Below are positions 1-12,275 of a stretch of 64,000 bases of DNA, piece after piece. How positions within the stretch are numbered: the stretch's first letter is position 1; every line of letters begins with the position of its first letter. The DNA is taken from assembly GCF_003790525.1 (NCBI RefSeq), contig NZ_CP033635.1, one strand, 5' to 3'. Under the pieces are notes generated by a model that made no database searches, was not told where the DNA came from, and saw only the letters and a program-made list of their open reading frames with translations. Made by a program: the position numbers and the translations under genes. Source of the stretch: Escherichia coli (GTDB taxonomy: Bacteria; Pseudomonadota; Gammaproteobacteria; Enterobacterales; Enterobacteriaceae).

Positions 1-38
1 GCTGCAGCGCCAGGTGGAAGAAGAGAACGTGGAGGGGC

Positions 39-773
39 GTGATGAATAATGATGCAGCACGTCAGGAGCAACTGATTAAACGGATAAGAAAACTGCTGGC
101 GCTGAGCCGGAATAACAGTAATCCCCATGAGGCAGGTCAGGCTCTTTCCCGCGCACAGGCGCTGATGCGGAAGCATGGTATCACCGAACTGGATGCTGAT
201 ATTTCGGTGATAAAAACCTCATCATCAAAGGGAGCACCGTCAGAAGCGGAAAAAGTTCCGGTATGGATGGGGCGTCTTATGAATGTTGTTGCAGGGGCAT
301 TCGGATGCCATACATACCTGGATTGGCGTATCACAACCGGAGGATACTGGCGGCGGATTGTCACATTTTATGGTTTTGGGGAGCGTCCGGTTGTGGCTGC
401 GTATGCCTTTGATGTTCTCTGCCGGCAGATGCAAAAGGCGACAAAAGAGTATCTCTCAACCCAGAGCCGGAAATTAAAACACTCAACCCGTCGTGCAAGA
501 GCTGCGATGTTTCGTGACGGCTGGGTTTATGGGGTGCGTGATGTGGTGGATGCATTCCGGCTCACGGAAGATGAGACGCGTGTAATGAATACGTGGCTGC
601 AGAACCAGCAATTTGAGGGAATGGTCGTCTTCCGGGAGGTAAAGGACTGCCATGGCGGTGACCATGCACGCTGGCAGGGATACAACGAGGGGAAAAAGGC
701 AACGCTGAATCACGGTGTTGGTTCCCGGGATCTGAGACCGGAAAGCCTGATATCAGGCGGAGGTGAGGTATGA
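39..773 (+). CDS. conserved island-associated hypothetical protein (DUF2786-like)
   Basis: 244-aa ORF; N-terminal basic helical region; resembles hypotheticals at the edge of SPI-7-type islands by recollection only. Confidence 0.35.
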   Translation: MMNNDAARQEQLIKRIRKLLALSRNNSNPHEAGQALSRAQALMRKHGITELDADISVIKTSSSKGAPSEAEKVPVWMGRLMNVVAGAFGCHTYLDWRITTGGYWRRIVTFYGFGERPVVAAYAFDVLCRQMQKATKEYLSTQSRKLKHSTRRARAAMFRDGWVYGVRDVVDAFRLTEDETRVMNTWLQNQQFEGMVVFREVKDCHGGDHARWQGYNEGKKATLNHGVGSRDLRPESLISGGGEV

Positions 774-1348
774 GTAATAACTTGTCACAGGCCACCAACG
801 GACTGTTGATGCAGCTGGTGATGGATCTCAAAAGTGGCTATCTGCGCCGCTGTGAAGCGCTGGGGCTTTCCCGGGAAGAAATGCAGATGCTGCAGGGGCT
901 GAGTATTGAGGAAATTCACTATCTGTCAAATTCAGAGGTGTCAGTGCTGCGGCTGGATATTAACCACAATAACCTTGTACGCATGCTGCAGCAGGCCAGG
1001 ACTGAACAGAAACGCCTGCAGCGAATCGATCGCGCTCTTGCACTGGGGGGATCGATTGAACTCATGGCGTTTTATTTTGGCCTTTCCAGTGTGGACGTTG
1101 CAGCACGGCGCCGTATTTCAGGAATTGATGTGCGCCCGGGGCGGGGTATCACACTCAGCGATGATGAAAACTCTGAACTCTGGAGACTGTGGCAGAAAGC
1201 AGGGATTAACGATGTGGAGAGCGCTGACGGGCTGGACGTCATGATGCTCTGTGCAGAGCAGATGAATATCCCGCTCACGGCCGTCTGGCATGCTGTCAGG
1301 GGGTGGCATACAGCCGGAAGCCCTGAACAGGTAAGGAATGCGTCATGA
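770..1348 (+). CDS. STY4526/YPO1902-family pathogenicity-island protein (putative)
   Basis: 192-aa ORF, start overlaps upstream stop (operon-like); family assignment from memory of N-terminal motifs. Confidence 0.4.
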   Translation: MSNNLSQATNGLLMQLVMDLKSGYLRRCEALGLSREEMQMLQGLSIEEIHYLSNSEVSVLRLDINHNNLVRMLQQARTEQKRLQRIDRALALGGSIELMAFYFGLSSVDVAARRRISGIDVRPGRGITLSDDENSELWRLWQKAGINDVESADGLDVMMLCAEQMNIPLTAVWHAVRGWHTAGSPEQVRNAS

Positions 1349-1593
1349 AGATGAAAGAGCTGGTTCCCGGTCTGCTGAGCTGTCCCGGGGTACCGCCAGC
1401 CTGCCAGCGGAAGGCGGTGGACCTCGTTAACCGGTTTCGTCGCGGGGAGAGGAATTACCATGAACTGAAGGAAAAGGGATTCGGGTATATCAAGATTAAT
1501 GTTGGTCCGGACTGGCGGTTACTGAGCAGGAACCGGGGACAAACCTGGGCGCTGTTGAGTCACGAGCGATACAACAATATGAGACTGAGGTAG
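1345..1593 (+). CDS. hypothetical small protein
   Basis: 82-aa ORF translationally coupled to upstream gene. Confidence 0.3.
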   Translation: MKMKELVPGLLSCPGVPPACQRKAVDLVNRFRRGERNYHELKEKGFGYIKINVGPDWRLLSRNRGQTWALLSHERYNNMRLR

Positions 1594-1772
1594 AGCAAAA
1601 TGACTGATTTTGGTTCAACTAAATATAACGCCAGTTTTGAAGAATGGCATGAAGTGTTAATGGACTATGCCGGGTTACGTGGTGGAAGTGCCGCCGATGC
1701 CGAAGCATGGCGCGATGACTATGAAGCTGGAAAAACGCCTGTCGAAGCATATTGCGATGAGTGGGGTGATGA

Positions 1773-1985
1773 ATGAGCAAAATTGACTATCAGGAGCTGC
1801 GTGAGGCGGCAGAAAAGGCAATGCATGACGACTGGGGATTTGACACGGACCTTTTCTATGAGCTGGTAGAACCATCGATTGTGCTGGCTCTGCTGGATGA
1901 ATGCGAGACGCTGGCAACTGAGAATGCGAAGCTGAAGACAGCACACCCTCAACTGTTCGGGAAAGCTGAAGGAGCGACAAAATGA
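1773..1985 (+). CDS. phage Ea22/ead-like small protein
   Basis: N-terminus MSKIDYQELREAAEKA resembles lambdoid early-region Ea22-type proteins. Confidence 0.3.
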   Translation: MSKIDYQELREAAEKAMHDDWGFDTDLFYELVEPSIVLALLDECETLATENAKLKTAHPQLFGKAEGATK

Positions 1986-2203
1986 GCAAGCCAACCGACG
2001 AAGAAATAGTTCGGGTGTTGGAAGAACACGGGCGCTGTATGACTTACGTCGTGACCAACTGGCTTAGGGATAAATATCGCACACTCAAAACGGCATACGT
2101 TTTGCGTCGTCTAAAGAAACTGGAGTTCGACGGGAAAGTAAAGCGCGTTAACAGTTCTTATATAAGACAAATTTGCTGGGAGGCAACCAGTGAGCGAGAT
2201 TGA
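1982..2203 (+). CDS. hypothetical small basic protein
   Basis: 73-aa ORF overlapping neighbours by 4 nt. Confidence 0.3.
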   Translation: MSKPTDEEIVRVLEEHGRCMTYVVTNWLRDKYRTLKTAYVLRRLKKLEFDGKVKRVNSSYIRQICWEATSERD

Positions 2204-2789
2204 TTATCAGGCGCTACGGGAACGTTATTCACCTAAGCCAGTACCTGAATGCTCTGTTTGTGGCGAGGAAATGTCAATACAGCGCATATCTGGAGCACAT
2301 GTTGTTTATGCCTGTTCCGGTGAGGGTGATGACGGATATTTTAAGATAGGGCGTACTTTTGCAGACGAACATTATGAAGAATCACGCGTAACAGTAGTTG
2401 ATGATAGTGATCCCGATGTGATTGCACTACTGGACGAACTGGAGGCAGCAAAATCAAAACTCAACGAGCAGCGTGAATATTACGAGGGAGTAATCGCGGA
2501 TGGGAGTAAGCGTATTGCAGAACTGGAAGCACGGGAAATAAAACCAGCCAAAGGCGAAGTTCTTGTCGTTGTATCTGGTTTTACTGGTTGCGGAAAAAGC
2601 GCCATTGCCGGGGAAATAGAAATCGCGATGAAGGCTATTGGTGTGCCGGTTCTATGGACTAATGGCGATGCGGAAAAGCGCATGACAGGAGCTGACTGGC
2701 TGACAGCGATTGAGATGTACAAACCAAATGTGCGCATCGTGGAAGTTAATGTGCCACGCGTCGCTGGCATTCGCACCAAAGGAGAGTGA
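2190..2789 (+). CDS. Ea22-like protein with Cys-pair and P-loop-like motif
   Basis: N-terminal MSEIDYQALRE, CSVCGEEM...YAC Cys pairs, coiled-coil segment, GFTGCGKS Walker-A-like motif. Confidence 0.35.
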   Translation: MSEIDYQALRERYSPKPVPECSVCGEEMSIQRISGAHVVYACSGEGDDGYFKIGRTFADEHYEESRVTVVDDSDPDVIALLDELEAAKSKLNEQREYYEGVIADGSKRIAELEAREIKPAKGEVLVVVSGFTGCGKSAIAGEIEIAMKAIGVPVLWTNGDAEKRMTGADWLTAIEMYKPNVRIVEVNVPRVAGIRTKGE

Positions 2790-2790
2790 T

Positions 2791-3306
2791 ATGGCGTTAA
2801 CACACCGCGAACTCTGTCAGATTGCGTACAAGTTCCTTAAGCGCAACGGGTTCAAGGTTTGTTTTCATGACCGCTTTATAGCTGTAACCAGTACCGGAGA
2901 GCAGCCAGATGCTATGGGATTCAGAAATTCAGCATCATGCCTGATAGAGGCGAAATGTTCTCGTGCTGACTTGTTGGCAGATAGAAAAAAGCGTTTTCGT
3001 AAAAATCCATCTCTTGGAATGGGCGACTGGCGATTCTTTATTAGTGAGCCGGGAATTATTTCAATTGAGGATTTACCACCTGGCTGGGGATTACTTCACG
3101 TTGTTAACGGAAGAGTACGGAAAGTACATGGGTGGCCCAGGGGTAATTGCTGTTGGGGTAATCCTGACGATAAGCCATTTACTGGAAATAAGCAGGTTGA
3201 ATGCGATTACATGTTATCTGCATTAAGGCGCATGGAGTTGAGAGGGCACCTTAATGAAATATATGACGGTGTAATTGTTAATAAGAAAGAAGGAAACGCA
3301 GCATGA
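2791..3306 (+). CDS. putative PD-(D/E)xK-type nuclease-like protein
   Basis: ATG at 2791 directly after upstream stop; motif PDAMGF ... LIEAKCSR fits D...(E)xK core; C-terminal Cys/Trp-rich tail. Confidence 0.3.
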   Translation: MALTHRELCQIAYKFLKRNGFKVCFHDRFIAVTSTGEQPDAMGFRNSASCLIEAKCSRADLLADRKKRFRKNPSLGMGDWRFFISEPGIISIEDLPPGWGLLHVVNGRVRKVHGWPRGNCCWGNPDDKPFTGNKQVECDYMLSALRRMELRGHLNEIYDGVIVNKKEGNAA

Positions 3307-3701
3307 TCACTATTACCAAAGAGCGACTGCTGACAATCCAGCAGTGGCGCGAAACATACGGACCTGGTAGCAACGTTGTATTGCCAGCAGAAGAAGCGGA
3401 AGAACTGGCACGAATTGCACTGGCATTGCTGGAAGCAGAACCGCTGGTGCCCGTCATGTATAAAGGAATGAAACTGTTAACAAAAGAGGGGCTTGAGCTT
3501 ATTCGTGACGGTATTGCTGAGGCTACAGGACTGGAAGCAATGTGTATGGCTGAGGCTTTGCTGTCTGGGGCGTCAGTGCCGTCAGTGCCAGAAGAAATGT
3601 ATTGGCAGGATGCGCCTGTTGGAGGCAGTAGCAAAGCAGCTGCATACGCGACAGGCTGGAATGCCTGTCGCGCCGCAATGCTTCAGGGAAAAGGAAAGTG
3701 A
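3303..3701 (+). CDS. hypothetical protein (paralog of 4134..4547)
   Basis: First ~47 aa nearly identical to the ORF at 4134. Confidence 0.4.
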   Translation: MITITKERLLTIQQWRETYGPGSNVVLPAEEAEELARIALALLEAEPLVPVMYKGMKLLTKEGLELIRDGIAEATGLEAMCMAEALLSGASVPSVPEEMYWQDAPVGGSSKAAAYATGWNACRAAMLQGKGK

Positions 3702-3703
3702 TA

Positions 3704-3924
3704 TGGCTAACTCGTTACTTGAAACCTGCAACAACTGGCAGATTCAGAGGGCGGAGATTTTATCTCGCAATCCAGATATGGCAATGACAATTGATAATCT
3801 GGACACGCTAATTGAACGGACCGTGCGTTCTGCAATTGATATAGCACATCGAGTGGATTGGGATTTCAGAGAAGCGGAGCGGCTTGCTAAAGAGCAGGAG
3901 AAAGCAGCGGGTAAAGGAGACTGA
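3704..3924 (+). CDS. hypothetical small protein
   Basis: ATG at 3704 preceded by AAGGAAAG; in frame within track ORF 3493..3924. Confidence 0.3.
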
Positions 3925-3925
3925 T

Positions 3926-4123
3926 ATGGATAAAAACACCACTGCTTACTGGAATCTGTCACTTGATACCGAATGCCCAAAATGCGGTCACAATTTCGAT
4001 CTGCTTTGTGATCCAGATTTCTGGGAATTTTCTGGAGCAAAACAGGCATGTGAAGAAATAAAAGGTTACGAAACATGCTGTCCAGAATGTAACCATGAAT
4101 TTAAAACAGATTTTGTGTATTGA
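3926..4123 (+). CDS. zinc-ribbon small protein
   Basis: CPKCGH ... CCPECNH Cys pairs; ATG at 3926 preceded by AAAGGAGA. Confidence 0.35.
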   Translation: MDKNTTAYWNLSLDTECPKCGHNFDLLCDPDFWEFSGAKQACEEIKGYETCCPECNHEFKTDFVY

Positions 4124-4133
4124 GGCATAACAA

Positions 4134-4547
4134 ATGACCACTATAACCAAAGAGCGACTGCTGACAATCAAGCAGTGGCGCGAAACATACGGACCGGGTA
4201 GCAACGTTGTACTGCCAGCAGAAGAAGCGGAAGAACTGGCACGGATTGTACTGGCATCGCTGGAAGCGGAACCGGTGGCGTGGATGTGTGATGACGAAGA
4301 TGGTCGTGAATATAACGGTCATAACGAGTTTTCTTATGGAAGACGCGGGATTCCCCTTTACGCCGTCCCGCCAGCGCCGAATGGATTGGTTAAAGCCGTA
4401 GCTTTCTATGAGCAGGTTAAACGTGAAAATCCGCCAGTTGAAACGGGAGCATGGAAAGACGCCGTTGACTGGGTGCTTAAACAAGCTTGTCAGGCTGTAA
4501 ACACTGGCATCAATGAAAGAAGAACAATTGAAGAAAATGATGATTGA
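4134..4547 (+). CDS. hypothetical protein (paralog of 3303..3701)
   Basis: Shared N-terminal module MTTITKERLLTIKQWRETYGPGSNVVLPAEEAEELARI. Confidence 0.4.
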   Translation: MTTITKERLLTIKQWRETYGPGSNVVLPAEEAEELARIVLASLEAEPVAWMCDDEDGREYNGHNEFSYGRRGIPLYAVPPAPNGLVKAVAFYEQVKRENPPVETGAWKDAVDWVLKQACQAVNTGINERRTIEENDD

Positions 4548-4595
4548 GCCGGAAGCAGCAAAAAAGCGCATTGCAGAACTGGAGGAGCGCCGGTC

Positions 4596-4811
4596 ATGAG
4601 AAAAATCAGTGGAATGTTGAACCTGGAGAAGGCCAGGATGCAGTTGCGTGTTTTGTTATCAGGACCGGTTCCTGCGATCACTCCGATGTCGCATGCCGTG
4701 GCAATTAAAGTTGTGCCTGATGCTCCGGATGCGAGTGAGCGGAGGGTGGCTGAACTGGAACAGGCCTGCGCTGCCGCGGGCATTCGTATCAAAGGGGAAC
4801 AAGTGAAATGA
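4596..4811 (+). CDS. hypothetical small protein
   Basis: 71-aa ORF in same-strand gene string. Confidence 0.25.
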   Translation: MRKISGMLNLEKARMQLRVLLSGPVPAITPMSHAVAIKVVPDAPDASERRVAELEQACAAAGIRIKGEQVK

Positions 4812-5029
4812 AACTGAAGATGCAGGCAATGGACGGCCCGGTGATTATAGAGAGTAGTGATGTGACACAGTTTTACCCTGACCATGAAAGTGGCGGGGAA
4901 CTCACCGCTGTTGAGTACCTTGCTGACGGGGGAAGAATCACCGCGAGGGTGAGTCACTCTTTTTATCAGGTTGCTGCGGCACTTGCCGGGGCATGGCGTG
5001 CGGATGATGCATCAAAAAGCGGTGGGTGA
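4808..5029 (+). CDS. hypothetical small protein
   Basis: 73-aa ORF overlapping upstream stop. Confidence 0.25.
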   Translation: MKLKMQAMDGPVIIESSDVTQFYPDHESGGELTAVEYLADGGRITARVSHSFYQVAAALAGAWRADDASKSGG

Positions 5030-5289
5030 GGACTGTGCCGGAATGATTGTCTGTTCCGAAGCTGCTGAACCGCGACATAAATTTTTTATGTTGCGGTGAA
5101 GCAGCCGGCAAACGAAGAGCGTCAGCGTATCAACAGTTAAGGAAAATATCTTCTGAAGCCGGACGCGACAGTCAGTCCGGTGGTGCTCGTGTGGTGAAGT
5201 GTTTAGCCTGCATCTTTGACAGGGTTCAGTTATAAGCATTTCGGAAACCGTTCCCCGGCGCAGTCTGCCGGGATTTAAGGAGTTTATTT

Positions 5290-6555
5290 ATGGCGCTACC
5301 TGCAGAAAGCCTTATTGCGCATACGCTCAGAAAAATGAAGGCCAGCATGGCAGAGAAAGCCAGTCGTGAGGACGGGAGGATACGCAGTGGGCTGTTGTTT
5401 ACCGGCAATGTTCACGATTCGTATCCCCGCAGGCTGTTGCTGGATACGCGCCTTTCTCCCCTTGATAAAACTGCGTGGATGATGATTCGTCTGCATGCCC
5501 TGAATAATGAGGGCGCAGTATTTCCGACGTACGATGAACTGCAGTTACAACTGGCATCTCCCGGGTGCGGGAAGGCGTCCCGTGAAACAGTGAGCCGGGT
5601 GCTGACAATGCTGCGGCTTACGGGCTGGCTGAGTCTGTGTAAGCGGGTCAGGGATGAAAAAGGGCGGGTCCGGGGGAATATTTACGCCCTGCATGATGAG
5701 CCACTGACCTGCTGTGATGCAGAAAAGTTTGACCCACGATACCTGGATATGGTTCTGGATACTGTGAGCAGGAGCCGGAACAAGACAATCCGGCACACAG
5801 CCAGTGAAGTGCTCAGTGATATCAAAAATGAGCCCGGTATGCGGCATTACCACAGCCATATCACTCTGTTTGAATCGCGTATGGGGGCAGCACAGACACC
5901 TGGTCAGCTGGCGGCGCGTCAGCGGGTGAACCCGATGGTGAATGAAAACACAGGCAGAGAGAGTGGTTCGGATTCCGTACATACCCCTGCACCTGTCGTG
6001 CAGGTAACCGAACTCAGTGCTCCGTTAACCGAACTCAGTGAAAAACAGGAAATGAGCCCACTCAGTTCGGATTCCGTACCGCCTGAAAAATCAGTAACTT
6101 ATCACTCGGTTCGGAAACCGAACAATTACGTACGTAATATCACACACAGTGTGATTAAAAATACGTACGTATTGCCTGAGTCGGTGAAATCGCAAATCAG
6201 CACAGAAGACACGGACATGCTGACAAAACAACTGCAGGCGTTGCCGGAAGAACTGGCAGGTAGTGTGCTGAGCAGCCTGTCACAGATGCTCAGCAAAAAC
6301 ACGCTCCAGAATCCGGTTGGCTGGATGCTGGCTGTGATGAAACGTGCGCGTGAGGGAAGTTTTAATACGCCGGATATGTCCGTGCATGAATCCCGGTCGC
6401 CAGCCCGTGCACCATATCAGCCTGTGTACAACCGTGATGAACGTGAACGTCGTCGCAGGAAAGTGGCGTCACCTGAAACGGTGAGCAACATTGTCGCAGA
6501 ATTCCGTGCCAGCCTGAAACGTGCAAATGCTGCCCGTCTGGCGGCGCGTGTTTGA
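5290..6555 (+). CDS. STY4528-family pathogenicity-island replication protein (putative)
   Basis: 421-aa ORF with AGGAG RBS; family name from memory; immediately followed by iteron-like tandem array. Confidence 0.45.
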   Translation: MALPAESLIAHTLRKMKASMAEKASREDGRIRSGLLFTGNVHDSYPRRLLLDTRLSPLDKTAWMMIRLHALNNEGAVFPTYDELQLQLASPGCGKASRETVSRVLTMLRLTGWLSLCKRVRDEKGRVRGNIYALHDEPLTCCDAEKFDPRYLDMVLDTVSRSRNKTIRHTASEVLSDIKNEPGMRHYHSHITLFESRMGAAQTPGQLAARQRVNPMVNENTGRESGSDSVHTPAPVVQVTELSAPLTELSEKQEMSPLSSDSVPPEKSVTYHSVRKPNNYVRNITHSVIKNTYVLPESVKSQISTEDTDMLTKQLQALPEELAGSVLSSLSQMLSKNTLQNPVGWMLAVMKRAREGSFNTPDMSVHESRSPARAPYQPVYNRDERERRRRKVASPETVSNIVAEFRASLKRANAARLAARV

Positions 6556-7381
6556 TGGTTAAAAATCGTACGGTGTTGGCAGTGCCAACAGTGGTTAAAA
6601 ATTGTGCGGTGTTGGCAGTGCCAACAGTGATTAAAAAATGTACGGTGTTGGCAGTGCCAACAGTGGTTAAAAATTGCGCGGTGTTGGCAGTGCCAACAGC
6701 GGTTAAAAAGTGTACGGCGTTGGCAGTGCCAACAGTGATTGAAAAATGTACGGTGTTGGCAGTGCCAACAGTGATTAAAAAATGTACGGTGTTGGCAGTG
6801 CCAACGGTGATTAAAAAATGTACGGTGTTGGCAGTGCCAACAGTGGTTAAAAATTGCGCGGTGTTGGCAGTGTCAACAGTGGTTAAAAATTGTGCGGTGT
6901 TGGCAGTGCCAACAGTGATTAAAAAATGTACGGTGTTGGCAGTGCCAACAGTGGTTAAAAATTGCGCGGTGTTGGCAGTGCCAACAGCGGTTAAAAAGTG
7001 TACGGCGTTGGCAGTGCCAACAGTGATTGAAAAATGTACGGTGTTGGCAGTGCCAACAGTGATTAAAAAATGTACGGTGTTGGCAGTGCCAACGGTGATT
7101 AAAAAATGTACGGTGTTGGCAGTGCCAACAGTGGTTAAAAATTGCGCGGTGTTGGCAGTGCCAACAGTGGTTAAAAATTGTGCGGTGTTGGCAGTGCCAA
7201 CAGTGATTAAAAAATGTACGGTGTTGGCAGTGCCAACAGCGGTTAAAAAGTGTACGGCGTTGGCAGTAGCAACAGCGATTAAAAAATGTACGGTGTTGCC
7301 AGTGGCAACAGTGGTTAAAAAGTGTCCGGCGTTGCCAGTGGCAACAGTGTTTGAAAATTGTACTGAGTTGGCACTGCCAAC
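6556..7381. repeat. tandem array of ~23 x 36-bp repeats, each with a 17-bp palindrome TGTTGGCA-G-TGCCAACA (iteron/centromere-like)
   Basis: Read directly: 36-bp period (palindromes at 6574-6590, 6610-6626, ...), unit GTTAAAAATTGYRCGG + palindrome; last copies carry symmetric variant TGTTGCCA-G-TGGCAACA. Confidence 0.9.
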
Positions 7382-7486
7382 ATGACGTAATTTCAGTCAT
7401 TCCTTTTTTTATTTTTGATTGTCAGATCTCCGTCTGCAGGCTGACTATTTCAGCCCGATATCCTTTTCTTTTGCCGGAGATATAAC

Positions 7487-8212
7487 ATGTCTGAAGAACA
7501 AATGAAGGAACCCGCATCCCGTCGTGTAGGTGCGCTTACTTCACCAGTGAATATCGAGTTGCACTCCCGTTATGCAATCATGCTGTGGGAAGGGAGACGA
7601 GGCACGAAAAGTAAAAGTGCTGAAGATCGCAGGGCAGCGAAAATAATGAGTATGCCGGAAGCTATTAAGATGACTGGCGGCCTCTACAGAGATTCTCTTG
7701 CTGATAATCCCTATGCGGATGAAACGATGTGGAAAGTTGAAAATGCGATTGTTGAGGCAACCGATAAAATTAATGCTGAAGTTCGTGTACTTGAAGGGAT
7801 CCTCAGAAATATTCCGTCAGTGATCACTGTCCGGGATGCTCTTTCTCGTTCTCCTGTCGATATTGGGGTTTTCAGCCGCTCTCCTCTGGGCTACCGCTGT
7901 GTATGGCTTCTTGTCGGGTATGATCAGCTTGCATTAAAAACGTTTCAGGCAGCACATCTGGGGCTTATTTCACGAAACAGGCGTGATGAGTTGTTGTCTT
8001 CTGGTGCGCATCTTATCCGCAAAATTTACGGTATTCTGCAGGGGTATCGCACTATGGCGGTAACTCGGGATGATATTGAGAATAAAACAGAAAAGGCAGA
8101 GAAAGCTATTGCCCGTTATGGTATGCCTCATGATGATATTCTATCCGGTAAGCTCAGATCTTCATTTTCTCCGCCCCTGAACCGTAAGTCCCGTGATGCA
8201 TCCCGGCAATGA
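7487..8212 (+). CDS. conserved ICE-associated protein
   Basis: 241-aa ORF between repeat array and topB; position conserved in this island class by recollection. Confidence 0.4.
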   Translation: MSEEQMKEPASRRVGALTSPVNIELHSRYAIMLWEGRRGTKSKSAEDRRAAKIMSMPEAIKMTGGLYRDSLADNPYADETMWKVENAIVEATDKINAEVRVLEGILRNIPSVITVRDALSRSPVDIGVFSRSPLGYRCVWLLVGYDQLALKTFQAAHLGLISRNRRDELLSSGAHLIRKIYGILQGYRTMAVTRDDIENKTEKAEKAIARYGMPHDDILSGKLRSSFSPPLNRKSRDASRQ

Positions 8213-8228
8213 CAGGTGAGGAGAATTC

Positions 8229-10247
8229 ATGCGTCTCTTTTTGTGTGAGAAACCTTCACAGGCCGGTGATATAGCCAGAGTACTTGGGGCTGCCAGACGT
8301 GTTGATGGTGCGATTGAAGGTAAGGACTTTGTTGTGACCTGGGCCTTTGGTCACTTGCTGGAGCAGGCGCCACCGGAGGCGTATGGTGAGCAGTTTGGCA
8401 GTCCCTGGAAAATTGACGTTTTGCCGGTCTTTCCTGAACAGTGGCAGATGGTGGTGAAGGATAATGTCGGGAAGCAGTTTAATGTGATCAGCCGCCTTCT
8501 CCGTAAGGCTGATGAAGTGGTGATTGCCACTGACGCCGATCGTGAAGGCGAAATTATCGCAAGGGAACTGCTGGATTATTGTGGTTATACCGGCGTTGTG
8601 CGCCGTCTCTGGCTGTCCGCACTGGATGAGAGCAGTATCAGGGAGGCGCTGGGCAGGATACTGCCCGGAGAGGAGACCGAGAAGTTATATGAAGCCGGTA
8701 AGGGACGCAGCCGGGCTGACTGGCTGACGGGGATCAACCTGACGCGTCTGTATACCCTGAAAGCCAGGGAGTGTGGTGTGTCCGGCGTCCTCTCTGTTGG
8801 CAGGGTGCAGACGCCCACGCTTGCGATGGTGGTCAGACGGGATGCAGAAATCAAAAATTTTATTCCGGTACCTTACTGGCAACTGTATCTCTGGCTGGAG
8901 AAGGACAATGTGCGTTTTCGTACCTCCTGGATTGCGGCAGCGCAGTACTGCGATACTGAAAAACGGTGTGTGAATGTGCAGGCGGCAACAGCCGTCCTGT
9001 CACAGTGTCGTCAGGCCGGTGTTGCTGTTGTCAGGGATGTCAGCAGCAGACGGGAGAAAAAGCAGCCTCCGCTGTGTTTTTCGCTCGGAACGCTGCAGGA
9101 GGTCTGTTCGCGCAAATTTGGCCTCGGCGCGCAGGCCGTTCTTGATATAGCCCAGTCGCTGTACGAAAAGCATAAGGCGACAACATATCCGCGTACAGAT
9201 TGCGGTTATCTGCCTGTGTCGATGTACAAAGAAGTGCCTGACGTACTGGCAGCGCTGGAAAAAACCGATCCGGATATTGCCCCGGAGCTGGCAAAACTCA
9301 GTCCTGATATTGTGTCGGGGATCTGGAACGACAGGAAGATCACCGCGCATCATGCGATAATCCCCACCCGTCAGCCGTTTAATATTGGGGCGCTGAGTGA
9401 TAATGAGCTTAAGGTGTACCGGTTAATTCGTCAGCATTATCTGGCTCAGTTTTTACCCGTTCAGGAGCTGGATGTCACAGAGGCCACTTTTCTTGTTGCG
9501 GGGCAGTTGTTTGGAACGCGGGGGCGAGTGGAGGTTGTCAGGGGATGGCGTGCGCTTTTTGTGTCAGATTCGGCGGGAGAGGAAGAGGATGTTGCAGACG
9601 ATGAGCAGGCGATGCCCCTTCCCGTACTGGCAAAAGGCGATGAATGTCGTCCTGCTGAAGCTGAACTCAAAGAGATGCAGACCACGCCACCGCGTCATTA
9701 TACGGAAGGCACGCTGATTGCGGCGATGAAAAACGCTGCGGGGATGGTGAGTGATCCGGCACTGAAAAAAGTGTTACGCGAAAATGCGGGGCTGGGCACT
9801 GAAGCGACCCGCGCAGAAATACTGGAAACGTTGTTCACCCGCAAATATATCGAGAAGCAGGGTAAGCATATCCGTGCCACGCAACTGGGGGCGGAGCTGA
9901 TAGCGGGATTGCCGGAGGCGCTGACCAGTCCGGGGACAACGGCGCTGTGGGAACAGGCTCTGGATGATATTGCACAGGGTAAACTGTCACTGTCGTCATT
10001 TATGGAAAAGCAGAAACAGTGGCTTAACCACCTGGTGGCCGGTGCAAGGCAGCAGCAACTGCAGATCACGGCACCGGTTACGCCGGCATGCCCTCTTTGT
10101 GGGAGCAGAATGCGGAAAGTGAAGATGAAAAGCGGGAAAGGGGAATTCTGGAGCTGCCAGCGTTATCCGGAGTGTAAGGGAGTGATTTCAGAGCAGAAAC
10201 CGACATCCGGGAAACGGGGCGGCAGAAAAATTAAAAAGCATGGATGA
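8229..10247 (+). CDS. topB: DNA topoisomerase III
   Basis: N-terminal Toprim motif MRLFLCEKPSQAGDIARVLGA, conserved topoisomerase IA core, C-terminal zinc ribbon CPLCGS...CQRYPEC. Confidence 0.9.
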   Translation: MRLFLCEKPSQAGDIARVLGAARRVDGAIEGKDFVVTWAFGHLLEQAPPEAYGEQFGSPWKIDVLPVFPEQWQMVVKDNVGKQFNVISRLLRKADEVVIATDADREGEIIARELLDYCGYTGVVRRLWLSALDESSIREALGRILPGEETEKLYEAGKGRSRADWLTGINLTRLYTLKARECGVSGVLSVGRVQTPTLAMVVRRDAEIKNFIPVPYWQLYLWLEKDNVRFRTSWIAAAQYCDTEKRCVNVQAATAVLSQCRQAGVAVVRDVSSRREKKQPPLCFSLGTLQEVCSRKFGLGAQAVLDIAQSLYEKHKATTYPRTDCGYLPVSMYKEVPDVLAALEKTDPDIAPELAKLSPDIVSGIWNDRKITAHHAIIPTRQPFNIGALSDNELKVYRLIRQHYLAQFLPVQELDVTEATFLVAGQLFGTRGRVEVVRGWRALFVSDSAGEEEDVADDEQAMPLPVLAKGDECRPAEAELKEMQTTPPRHYTEGTLIAAMKNAAGMVSDPALKKVLRENAGLGTEATRAEILETLFTRKYIEKQGKHIRATQLGAELIAGLPEALTSPGTTALWEQALDDIAQGKLSLSSFMEKQKQWLNHLVAGARQQQLQITAPVTPACPLCGSRMRKVKMKSGKGEFWSCQRYPECKGVISEQKPTSGKRGGRKIKKHG

Positions 10248-10514
10248 TGATTACATGCTTTTTTTTATTTGTTAAAGTACATACGCTTTGATGTATACCC
10301 CCGTTATCAGCGGGAAACAGAGTGGCGATTAAACAACGGCGTTGCTCTGTTTCTGATACAGCAACGACCACTGCGTCCGGTTGTGTTGCAAGGCGCACGA
10401 ACTCCGTGAAAACCGCGTCGGGAGTGATCCCCGGAGAAAAGTGAGATAACCTCAGGGCTGGTAACCCGTGACGGCGCTGAATTTTCAGCGCCGTTTTTTA
10501 TTGGTGTTTTCTGC

Positions 10515-10815
10515 TTGACTTTATTTATGGCTGTTTTAAAAATGAGCATGCTAAATAGCTGCTTTGCAGCCAACCAATCTCCCGGTGGTCTGAGAGGGAG
10601 GCTTACGCGACCACACTGTCATCTTCGGATGACCAGCCAATGTTCCAGCAGTCTGAGAGGAGCGCCTTCGGGTGACTGCCAGCCAATGTTTCAGCGATCT
10701 GAGAGAAACGCCTTCGGGTGATTGCAATATCCTCGTAGCCTGAAAGGGGATGCCTTTATGGCGGTACATCCGTTTAGCCTCTGGGAACGGATATCACCAC
10801 TGGTGATTGAGGTAC
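10515..10815 (+). ncRNA. candidate structured RNA or ssDNA element with three hairpin modules (copy 1), unclassified
   Basis: -35-like TTGACT at 10515; modules at 10587-10612, 10649-10678, 10695-10724 each with outer stem, UGAGAG-rich internal loop and CGCC-UUCG-GGUG tetraloop stem; extra hairpin GTCATC-TTCG-GATGAC at 10618-10633. Confidence 0.45.
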
Positions 10816-10937
10816 GTTTAACTGCACAGACAGCCGGAAATTCAGCTGATTCCGGCATCCCCGACGGGAACTATCACTCCCGTCAGGGCTGGTGATGTTC
10901 TCCGTCATATCTTTTTTTACTCCATGGAGAAATCATC

Positions 10938-11402
10938 ATGTCTGCAACTAACTCTACTTCTGCAAAAACTGAATACTTCAACCTGACCATGAAAGGTCTT
11001 GGGTATCTCAGCAATGTACGTCAGGTTAACCATCAGAACGGTTCGTTCCTCAGCTGCGTGATTAACGCACTGAGTGGACCAACGGACAATCCGTCCTATA
11101 CGCGTTTTGATGTCACGGTTGCCGGTAAAGAGGCGACCACCCTGATCTCCCGCTGCCAGAAAGCAGTGGATGAGGACCGCAAGGTACTGCTTGGTTTTAC
11201 GTTAAGCAACCTTGCCACCGACATTTTCACCCTGAACAAGGGGGAGCATGCCGGTGAGCAACGCGTCAGCCTGAAAGCCCGCCTGATCAAGGTGGACTGG
11301 ATAAAAATAGGCCAGGAGCAGGTCTATAAGGCTGAAAAAGCGGAGTCCCAGCCACCGAGCCATGGCACCACAAAACGTGAATACGCAGAAGACTCCTTCT
11401 GA
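10938..11402 (+). CDS. STY4534-family ICE protein (putative)
   Basis: 154-aa ORF with GGAGAAA RBS; family assignment from memory, uncertain. Confidence 0.4.
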   Translation: MSATNSTSAKTEYFNLTMKGLGYLSNVRQVNHQNGSFLSCVINALSGPTDNPSYTRFDVTVAGKEATTLISRCQKAVDEDRKVLLGFTLSNLATDIFTLNKGEHAGEQRVSLKARLIKVDWIKIGQEQVYKAEKAESQPPSHGTTKREYAEDSF

Positions 11403-11501
11403 TCGCGTATTTTTCTCACTGCCTCCCTGATAAAGAAAACAGACCACCATCAGGGAGGTCTGTTTTCTTATTGTTTTTACTGAACTTTAAGGAAACAAAT
11501 T

Positions 11502-11705
11502 ATGACTTCTACAAACGGTATTCTCGCAGCTGCGGCAGGTTATACATTACCTCTGGAAATACTCAAAAGTGGGCGCGGATATTATATTGGCACTCAGTGT
11601 TCTGAAGGACCGGTATCCCGTGAATCAGAAGAGTATTTCAAAAAATATGAGCAGGCTGAGCGGGCGCTGAAAAATGGCACCTGGACACAACGTCATGCCT
11701 GGTAA
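11502..11705 (+). CDS. DUF905-like small protein (YkfF-like)
   Basis: 67-aa ORF; resembles small proteins co-occurring with ssb in CP4-type islands (recollection). Confidence 0.35.
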   Translation: MTSTNGILAAAAGYTLPLEILKSGRGYYIGTQCSEGPVSRESEEYFKKYEQAERALKNGTWTQRHAW

Positions 11706-11717
11706 TGAGGAGGTGCT

Positions 11718-12275
11718 ATGGCTTCACGCGGCGTAAACAAAGTTATCCTGATAGGACATCTGGGGCAGGATCCGGATATCCGGTATTTCCCCAATGGCGG
11801 TGGCGCTGTGGCGAATCTGTCACTGGCGACCAGCGACACCTGGCGGGATAAACAGAGCGGTGAAATGAAGGAAGTTACTGAATGGCACCGCGTTGTTCTC
11901 TATGGAAAACTGGCTGAAGTTGCCGGCGAGTACCTGCATAAGGGGTCGCAGGTGTATATAGAAGGCCAGCTTAAAACCCGTAAATGGTTTGACCAGCAGA
12001 ATGGTGTGGACCGTTATTCAACTGAGGTTGTTGTGGGCGTGAATGGTGTCATGCAGATGCTGGGTTCATCGCGTCAGCAGGGCGCTTCCGGTAATGGTGC
12101 TTCAGCACTGGCACAAGGGGGCCAGGGACATCCGCCGAAGACGACCGGACAGACTGGTCGTGCCACCCGGACGACGTCAACGGGTAATGGTGCTCCACCA
12201 ATGGACTTTGACGATGATATCCCCTTTATGGGGCTCGGGTATGGCATGGAACGACGAATTATTCATGCCATGTAA
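11718..12275 (+). CDS. ssb: single-stranded DNA-binding protein
   Basis: OB-fold N-terminus [28 protein letters not shown], Gly/Gln-rich linker, acidic tail DFDDDIPF. Confidence 0.92.

Follow-up and report, generated by a model that had tools for sequence, protein, structure and literature searches.

Two short-form members of the EaA/DUF551-associated mosaic family in a predicted integrative and conjugative element of Escherichia coli

Lambda and Shiga toxin (Stx) phages encode Ea22 (PF13935), a mosaic pro-lysogenic protein (PMC7093339, PMC10834534) in which a conserved N-terminal part is followed by swapped acidic C-terminal domains, one variant carrying DUF551 (PMC10834534). Two further described systems are the EaA-like DUF551 proteins, for example gp70 (168 amino acids, aa) of Shigella phage 75/02 Stx, and Upf89.5 (432 aa) of phage P7, which belongs to the C1-controlled hea operon of the P1/P7 phage-plasmids. 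YfdT (101 aa), from prophage CPS-53 of E. coli K-12, is the sole relative with a genetic phenotype: initiation at oriC is inhibited when yfdQ and yfdR are present in multicopy along with yfdS or yfdT (PMC4776307). Here we compare with these systems two open reading frames (ORFs), ORF A and ORF B, of an E. coli chromosome (NZ_CP033635.1), of which a stretch of 64,000 nucleotides (nt), the window, was analysed. Both are new short-form members of a very large, already catalogued family of EaA/DUF551-associated mosaic proteins, whose members are found in temperate phages, P1/P7-type phage-plasmids and prophages of Enterobacteriaceae, and as such they are ordinary. We regard it as probable that they are intact, small, acidic accessory proteins of this family, encoded here in the accessory block of an integrative and conjugative element (ICE). 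The two ORFs and their shared N-terminal module are laid out as follows.

3303..3701, + strand: ORF A, 132 aa; the N-terminal module, a middle segment starting 'LVPVMYKGMKLLTKEGLELIRDG...' and an end reading 'EEMYWQDAPV...GWNACRAAMLQGKGK'; a short form without DUF551

4134..4547, + strand: ORF B, 137 aa; the N-terminal module, a beta-hairpin segment reading 'VAWMCDDEDGREYNGHNEF...LYAVPPAP' and a helical end, 'GLVKAVAFYEQVKRENPPVETGAWKDAVDWVLKQACQAV'

3303..3447, + strand: module copy A, a 145-nt direct repeat coding for residues 1–48 of ORF A

4134..4278, + strand: module copy B, a 145-nt direct repeat coding for residues 1–48 of ORF B

When compared by BLASTP, the two proteins share 43 identities over residues 1–48 (E 5e-28), a match that far exceeds chance, and show no second significant similarity outside these residues. 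The corresponding 145-nt direct repeat is identical at 135 of 145 positions (93%), with the copies 831 nt apart, and is the sole long repeat within the first 5.4 kb of the window. The DNA likeness runs from the ATG to about codon 48, and the 5' flanks of the two ORFs are unrelated. AlphaFold2 predicts the module as a helix (residues 6–19), a loop and a second helix (residues 29–44) in both ORF A (mean predicted local distance difference test score, pLDDT, 51) and ORF B (pLDDT 72). Behind the module, helices only are predicted for ORF A, at low confidence, versus a beta-hairpin and helices for ORF B, at moderate confidence. In a MAFFT alignment, the C-terminal ends ('GWNACRAAML' and 'WVLKQACQAV') looked as if they could be distant homologues; hhalign gave this a probability of 1%, and we rejected it. 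The initial annotation had described near-identical first residues (about 47) followed by complete divergence, and the 43/48 match, the hhalign result and the differing predicted secondary structures bear this out.

The module has the consensus MxTITKERLLTIKQWRETYGPGSNVVLPAEEAEELARIALASLEAEP and bears no curated family name. An earlier homologue search with the 48-aa module alone had returned short or partial proteins only, which said nothing about architecture. An exhaustive HMMER search of the 48-aa module against 1.84 billion cluster representatives (50%-identity clusters) recovered 577 module-bearing representatives at E <= 1e-3, of which 435 reached E <= 1e-10. The best 150 of the 577 are 65–418 aa long, keep the module at 81–98% identity despite belonging to separate 50%-identity clusters, and in 146 cases begin it at residues 1–3. 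The shared 47–48 residues are therefore a discrete protein module that is almost always N-terminal. Full-length searches related 3281 clusters (90% identity) to ORF A and 4365 to ORF B; these relatives come from Escherichia, Salmonella, Shigella, Klebsiella, Citrobacter and Enterobacter and are mostly named "DUF551 domain-containing protein" or Eaa. At the DNA level (>=90% identity), the module occurs in 1174 of 5426 complete E. coli genomes (22%), at 1609 places in all, with up to 7 per genome and 267 of the places on plasmids. It also occurs in 185 phage records, mostly of Stx-converting phages, several of which hold two copies. A survey of the module across phage and ICE genomes, proposed at the outset as a check, thus finds it widely spread. 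One further match lies well beyond the Stx/lambdoid and P1-like groups: Escherichia phage Av-05 (NC_025830.1), a 121-kb phage of E. coli O157:H7, carries module DNA at 75022–75140 (90% identity over 119 nt).

To describe the architecture of the family, we inspected representative sequences. Segment M1 is the module, which also exists in alternative versions, all bracketed by MTTIT... and ...IALASLEAEP. M2 is a highly variable middle, often ending in ...LYAxPPxPVVP, and M3 comes in two types that are not related to each other, ORF A having '...EEMYWQDAPVEGSSKAAAYATGWNACRAAML' and ORF B '...GLVKAVRFYEQVKRENPPVETGAWKDAVDWVLKEACQAV'; a linker plus DUF551 forms an optional last segment. Only four partner domains are recognised by Pfam in the 150 representatives: 42 have DUF551, 5 have dATP/dGTP pyrophosphohydrolase, 1 has DUF4752 and 1 has Ead_Ea22. 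With 146 representatives extending at least 30 residues past the module, the segment right after it is of 61 kinds, and 137 of these representatives are nevertheless linked by some common downstream sub-module. Read from these sequences, the family is a reticulate mosaic of at least four short segments and not one domain with many independent effectors. The initial annotation had proposed that the module is shuffled onto differing downstream sequences, and the 61 kinds of following segment agree with this. It had also pictured a common domain fused to variable effectors; the module is indeed joined to many segments, but independent effectors are too simple a description of a family in which 137 of 146 members share downstream sub-modules.

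Both ORFs fall into this family over most of their length by their matches to the PHROG profiles phrog_660 and phrog_5117. ORF A matches phrog_5117 (residues 1–130 against profile positions 1–124 of 125, E 7.1e-12), phrog_660 (E 1e-14) and phrog_60, and ORF B matches phrog_660 (E 3.2e-43, residues 1–129). The PHROGs matched by the two ORFs (phrog_660, phrog_5117, phrog_60 and phrog_3323, all labelled "unknown function") are heterogeneous mosaic clusters, and the matches carry no functional information. Both proteins are acidic (isoelectric point 4.7–4.8), a character likewise noted for the C-terminal domains of Ea22 (PMC10834534).

Bases 1–12000 of the window are 99.4% identical to five complete RefSeq genomes. 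In these, the annotated genes run from an SPI-7-type DnaB through ParB, DUF2786, DUF2857 and ParE-like genes to small Ead/Ea22-like and hypothetical genes, and continue with a STY4528-family island replication protein, a PFL_4669-family ICE protein, topoisomerase III, a STY4534-family ICE replication protein, Ssb, PilL and, further on, TraD. The backbone of a SPI-7/PAPI-1-type ICE is therefore present (DnaB, ParB, the STY4528 and STY4534 families, PFL_4669, TopB, Ssb, PilL and TraD), as judged from the RefSeq annotation of backbone genes in loci 95–99% identical to the window. Going by this gene order, ORF A and ORF B lie in an Ead/Ea22-type block between the ParB/DUF2786/DUF2857/ParE-like genes and the STY4528-family replication gene, and the block itself is a variable accessory region of the ICE, not as part of a lambdoid prophage. 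Its first description as "lambdoid-like" does not hold for the setting, yet the same DNA block is also found in Stx phages and P1/P7 phage-plasmids. Across related ICEs, two module genes are present in the window and in at least 10 listed genomes, one in each of two loci, NZ_CP190349 (L003) and NZ_CP182371 (L007), and none in a more distant locus (L006, 84% identity). A literature search on this accessory block in SPI-7-type ICEs found nothing relevant. Four genes of the block accompany the two ORFs.

2190..2789, + strand: Ead/Ea22-like gene (PF13935, E 3.5e-26), first of a conserved trio

2791..3306, + strand: 171-aa gene (phrog_9263, E 8e-123), directly upstream of ORF A

3703..3924, + strand: 73-aa gene (phrog_10585, E 1e-42; WP_000013837.1 in the near-identical genome L001), located between ORF A and ORF B; not present in L003 or L007

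3926..4123, + strand: gene for a 65-aa zinc-ribbon protein with two CxxC pairs (phrog_4173, E 9e-28), between ORF A and ORF B; its zinc-ribbon and YnfU family matches are weak, all under cut-offs

Stops and starts in the block overlap or abut (ATGA at 3303, TGAnATG at 3703 and 3926). The ATG of ORF A overlaps the stop codon of the 171-aa gene in the first of these, and ORF A is predicted to be translationally coupled to that gene. A consensus scan of the block found no promoter-like sites on the + strand, and terminator-like sites were not above shuffled expectation, with one weak + strand match at 4012–4025. Because of the tight packing, the lack of + strand promoter-like sites and the lack of a terminator excess, we infer that both ORFs would be co-transcribed with the upstream ICE replication and partition genes in a tightly packed operon.

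The trio is syntenic across the ICE, Stx phage 75/02 and P7: an Ead/Ea22-like gene comes first, followed by the 171-aa gene and then the module gene. The 171-aa gene and module block correspond to gp71–gp70 in phage 75/02 and to upf89.0–upf89.5 in P7, the 171-aa protein is 97–100% identical across the three (gp71 in 75/02; Upf89.0, mislabelled "minor tail protein", in P7), and its gene always lies directly upstream of the module gene and overlaps its start. The EaA-like DUF551 proteins such as 75/02 gp70 share with the window ORFs the N-terminal module, the upstream neighbours and the segmental mosaic build. What sets the window ORFs apart from these proteins of Stx and lambdoid phages and prophages is that they have no C-terminal DUF551 (PF04448) and lie in an ICE instead of a phage. 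Upf89.5 of P7 has the same 47-aa start and follows Upf88.3 (Ead/Ea22-like) and Upf89.0, but is much longer than the window ORFs and has several extra segments. Upstream of the P7 trio, the record annotates a C1 repressor operator, Op(hea), and predicts that it regulates the hea operon. The consensus 47-aa peptide is identical in L003, 75/02 gp70 and P7 Upf89.5, from which ORF A and ORF B differ at 2 residues each. As for the 171-aa protein itself, a PD-(D/E)xK-like motif (D40...E53-A-K55) can be seen by eye, and among annotated families it matches just phrog_5429, "DNA repair protein", and that weakly (E 0.003).

Ea22 is found in the same accessory blocks, and its N-terminus is occasionally fused to the module (P0223). 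Unlike the neighbouring gene at 2190..2789, however, neither ORF A nor ORF B matches PF13935, and neither has a coiled coil; the pro-lysogenic role of Ea22 is not transferable to them. YfdT belongs to the same architecture class, with an N-terminal module of about 42 aa (MTT.T... / ...IAL.SLE.EP) followed by a variable body, and a module of the YfdT type occurs fused to the ORF B body in one relative (P0218). The block of the window contains no annotated homologue of yfdQ or yfdR.

Over the 171-aa gene and the module, the window is about 95–97% identical in DNA to Stx phages, P7-like phage-plasmids and other plasmids. This similarity ends at the 3' end of the module, at about 3447 and 4279, and the similarity to L003 also stops at 3447; the module 3' end (...IALASLEAEP) is a recurrent mosaic breakpoint. 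In L003 and L007, a single hybrid gene joins the upstream flank of ORF A and the first bases of the module to the body of ORF B, and the 831 bp that are gone comprise the ORF A body, the 73-aa gene and the 65-aa gene. At ten sites diagnostic for copy A or copy B, the pattern is AABBBBABBB in L003 and AAABBBBBBB in L007. The two direct copies thus recombine with each other, and the differing patterns imply separate crossovers, with at least two independent homologous exchanges inside the 145-bp repeat. Such crossovers fit the established view of phage mosaicism as the outcome of relaxed homologous recombination where short stretches are conserved (De Paepe et al. 2014, PMC3945230).

The module is joined by recombination to many differing downstream segments. 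It may serve as a common docking or self-association unit, with the variable bodies supplying target specificity. The proteins would be made when the element is active or newly arrived, and by analogy with Ea22, and with YfdT together with YfdQ and YfdR, they may modulate host or element physiology during establishment. A bolder proposal, which we think unlikely, is that the 47-aa module is a dedicated docking handle, used for self-assembly or for a conserved partner (for example, the 171-aa nuclease-like protein or Ea22), which would define a polymorphic class of exchangeable host-takeover or counter-defence effectors of phages, phage-plasmids and ICEs. Its strict conservation would then double as a homology arm to swap, stack (as here) or collapse cassettes.

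Several results weigh against reading ORF A and ORF B as intact accessory proteins of the EaA/DUF551-associated family. Neither has a Pfam match at E <= 0.1, so that membership of DUF551 (PF04448) itself is not found. Likewise, neither matches NCBIfam or gives a match in profile searches of PDB sequences, and the two ORFs and three neighbouring genes have no match in PADLOC (anti-phage defence). The AlphaFold2 model of ORF A (pLDDT 51) is too uncertain for use. Synteny of the trio with the 171-aa gene may reflect mere co-inheritance of one DNA block. The similarity between YfdT and ORF B is not significant (BLASTP E 0.033, over a 10-residue junction only), and a link to replication therefore rests on a chain of mosaic relatives (P0218). 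Fold searches with the ORF B model returned no meaningful neighbour either. Domain and structure prediction, which the initial annotation had suggested as a check, thus yielded a predicted helix-loop-helix module but no Pfam domain and no structural relative. Finally, the Prokaryotic Genome Annotation Pipeline (PGAP) of RefSeq calls both genes partial pseudogenes in a 99.4% identical genome.

This last point is the basis of the first alternative, that ORF A and ORF B are decayed fragments of DUF551 genes that encode nothing functional. The PGAP calls in NZ_CP059917 (the near-identical genome), L003 and L007 are of a partial pseudogene "missing C-terminus" and cover just the initial 135 nt of each gene, and it is true that many relatives are longer (about 205–225 aa) and end in DUF551, which both ORFs lack. 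ORF A, for example, has relatives of 207–211 aa at 86–92% identity and ends just ahead of the point at which the linker and DUF551 start in its relatives of 214–225 aa. However, both frames are open to natural ends common to many independent proteins. The C-terminus of ORF A, ...AAMLQGKGK, exactly matches that of 128-aa proteins, among them the independent P0116, and the end of P0196 is similar. ORF B belongs to a family of 135–148 aa found on hundreds of contigs of E. coli and Salmonella, and is 99% identical to cluster P0217 (137 aa, 43 member sequences), whose annotation is that of an intact "hypothetical protein"; an identical gene is annotated in this way in other RefSeq genomes (P0217, H66). 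The ORFs are moreover intact in L001, L003 and L007, which is every ICE copy examined, and their start/stop coupling with neighbouring genes is kept. The same PGAP runs label the 171-aa gene "frameshifted", although it is intact, full length and of the same length as the phage-annotated proteins. Given the natural ends shared with independent proteins, the intact annotation elsewhere, the preserved ORFs and the miscalled 171-aa gene, the partial-pseudogene calls look like annotation artefacts, and we consider decay to be quite improbable.

Less probable still is the second alternative, in which selection maintains the 145-bp segment for a role as DNA or RNA (for example, a dedicated recombination site, an antisense promoter or a regulatory RNA) and its coding is incidental. 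The segment is a recurrent recombination junction, and both copies contain antisense sigma-70-like hexamer pairs on the minus strand, TTGTCA-16-AATAGT (3336->3309) and TTGTCA-16-TATAGT (4167->4140). The hexamers are probably due to chance, since the region has no more promoter-like sites than expected from shuffled sequence. The segment has no match in Rfam, and its RNA fold does not surpass those of shuffled sequences (z -0.53). L003 and L007 have their crossovers at different points, which fits general homologous recombination and not a site-specific system. Substitutions in the module point the same way: the module copies of L003, Stx phage 75/02 and P7 are translated into one and the same 47-aa peptide although their DNA has 5–7 differences, all synonymous (proportion of synonymous sites that differ, pS, 0.14–0.19; the nonsynonymous equivalent, pN, 0), and copies A and B of the window give a pN/pS of 0.28 (pS 0.136), in a small sample of five module copies. 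An identical peptide despite synonymous change is the mark of constraint on the peptide, and the module is accordingly under purifying selection at that level.

The third alternative, a recent local tandem duplication in this ICE whose 3' parts then diverged and whose module has no wider significance, would account for two direct copies 831 bp apart at 93% identity, but it is effectively refuted by the distribution data and scarcely credible, since the likeness begins exactly at the ATG and ends at codon 48 with no fading similarity past there, the bodies of ORF A and ORF B each have their own relatives elsewhere fused to the same module, the module is carried by 22% of complete E. coli genomes, by 185 phage records and by plasmids, and the synonymous divergence of copy A from copy B (pS 0.136) is as large as that between copies of different elements. 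A local duplication with no wider distribution was also what the initial annotation had named as counting against its own proposal, and this is not what we found.

Apart from the two ORFs, their surroundings hold several features. A second gene pair (1773–1985 and 2190–2789) has a common short Ead/Ea22 N-terminus (MSKIDYQELRE... / MSEIDYQALRE...) followed by differing sequence; sharing of N-terminal modules is thus a general property of the block. At 4537–4599, a 20-codon mini-ORF (MMIEPEAAKKRIAELEERRS) connects the end of ORF B, through ATGA overlaps, with the following gene, whose ATG is at 4596. Within the mini-ORF, 20 nt (4564–4583) repeat a stretch of the Ea22-like gene (2508–2527) at 95% identity, and because of this repeat it is probably a remnant of the Ea22 coiled coil left by recombination. 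Between the DUF2857 gene and the Ead/Ea22 block, an 82-aa ORF (1345–1593) is annotated as a "ParE family toxin-like protein" in the near-identical genome; an adjacent antitoxin is not obvious in the annotation. Downstream of the block, 23 tandem copies of a 36-bp unit (89% matches) occupy 6556–7382, between the STY4528-family gene (5290..6555) and the PFL_4669-family gene (7487..8212). The array is open throughout as a repetitive 277-aa ORF, which PGAP labels a hypothetical protein, and L001 is 180 bp shorter across the matched 12-kb stretch, with the difference at the array, which would equal five units. Its position next to a replication gene suggests iterons.

Read as intact EaA/DUF551-associated accessory genes, ORF A and ORF B are a textbook case of segmental mosaicism in a family already abundant in databases, and the pair has little significance by itself. 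Its RefSeq annotation nevertheless flags a systematic error, in which short-form genes that are intact receive partial-pseudogene calls, since their naming relies on the longer DUF551 form as evidence. The locus also offers a clean natural example, in an ICE, of a 145-bp intragenic repeat that mediates the loss of a cassette, by two independent crossovers. Stx phages, P1/P7 phage-plasmids and SPI-7-type ICEs have Ead/Ea22/EaA cassettes in common, with about 95% identity in their DNA, and these three classes of element therefore draw on one common accessory gene pool. If the module is indeed a common docking domain, it would provide a handle for the functional study of about 600 protein clusters.

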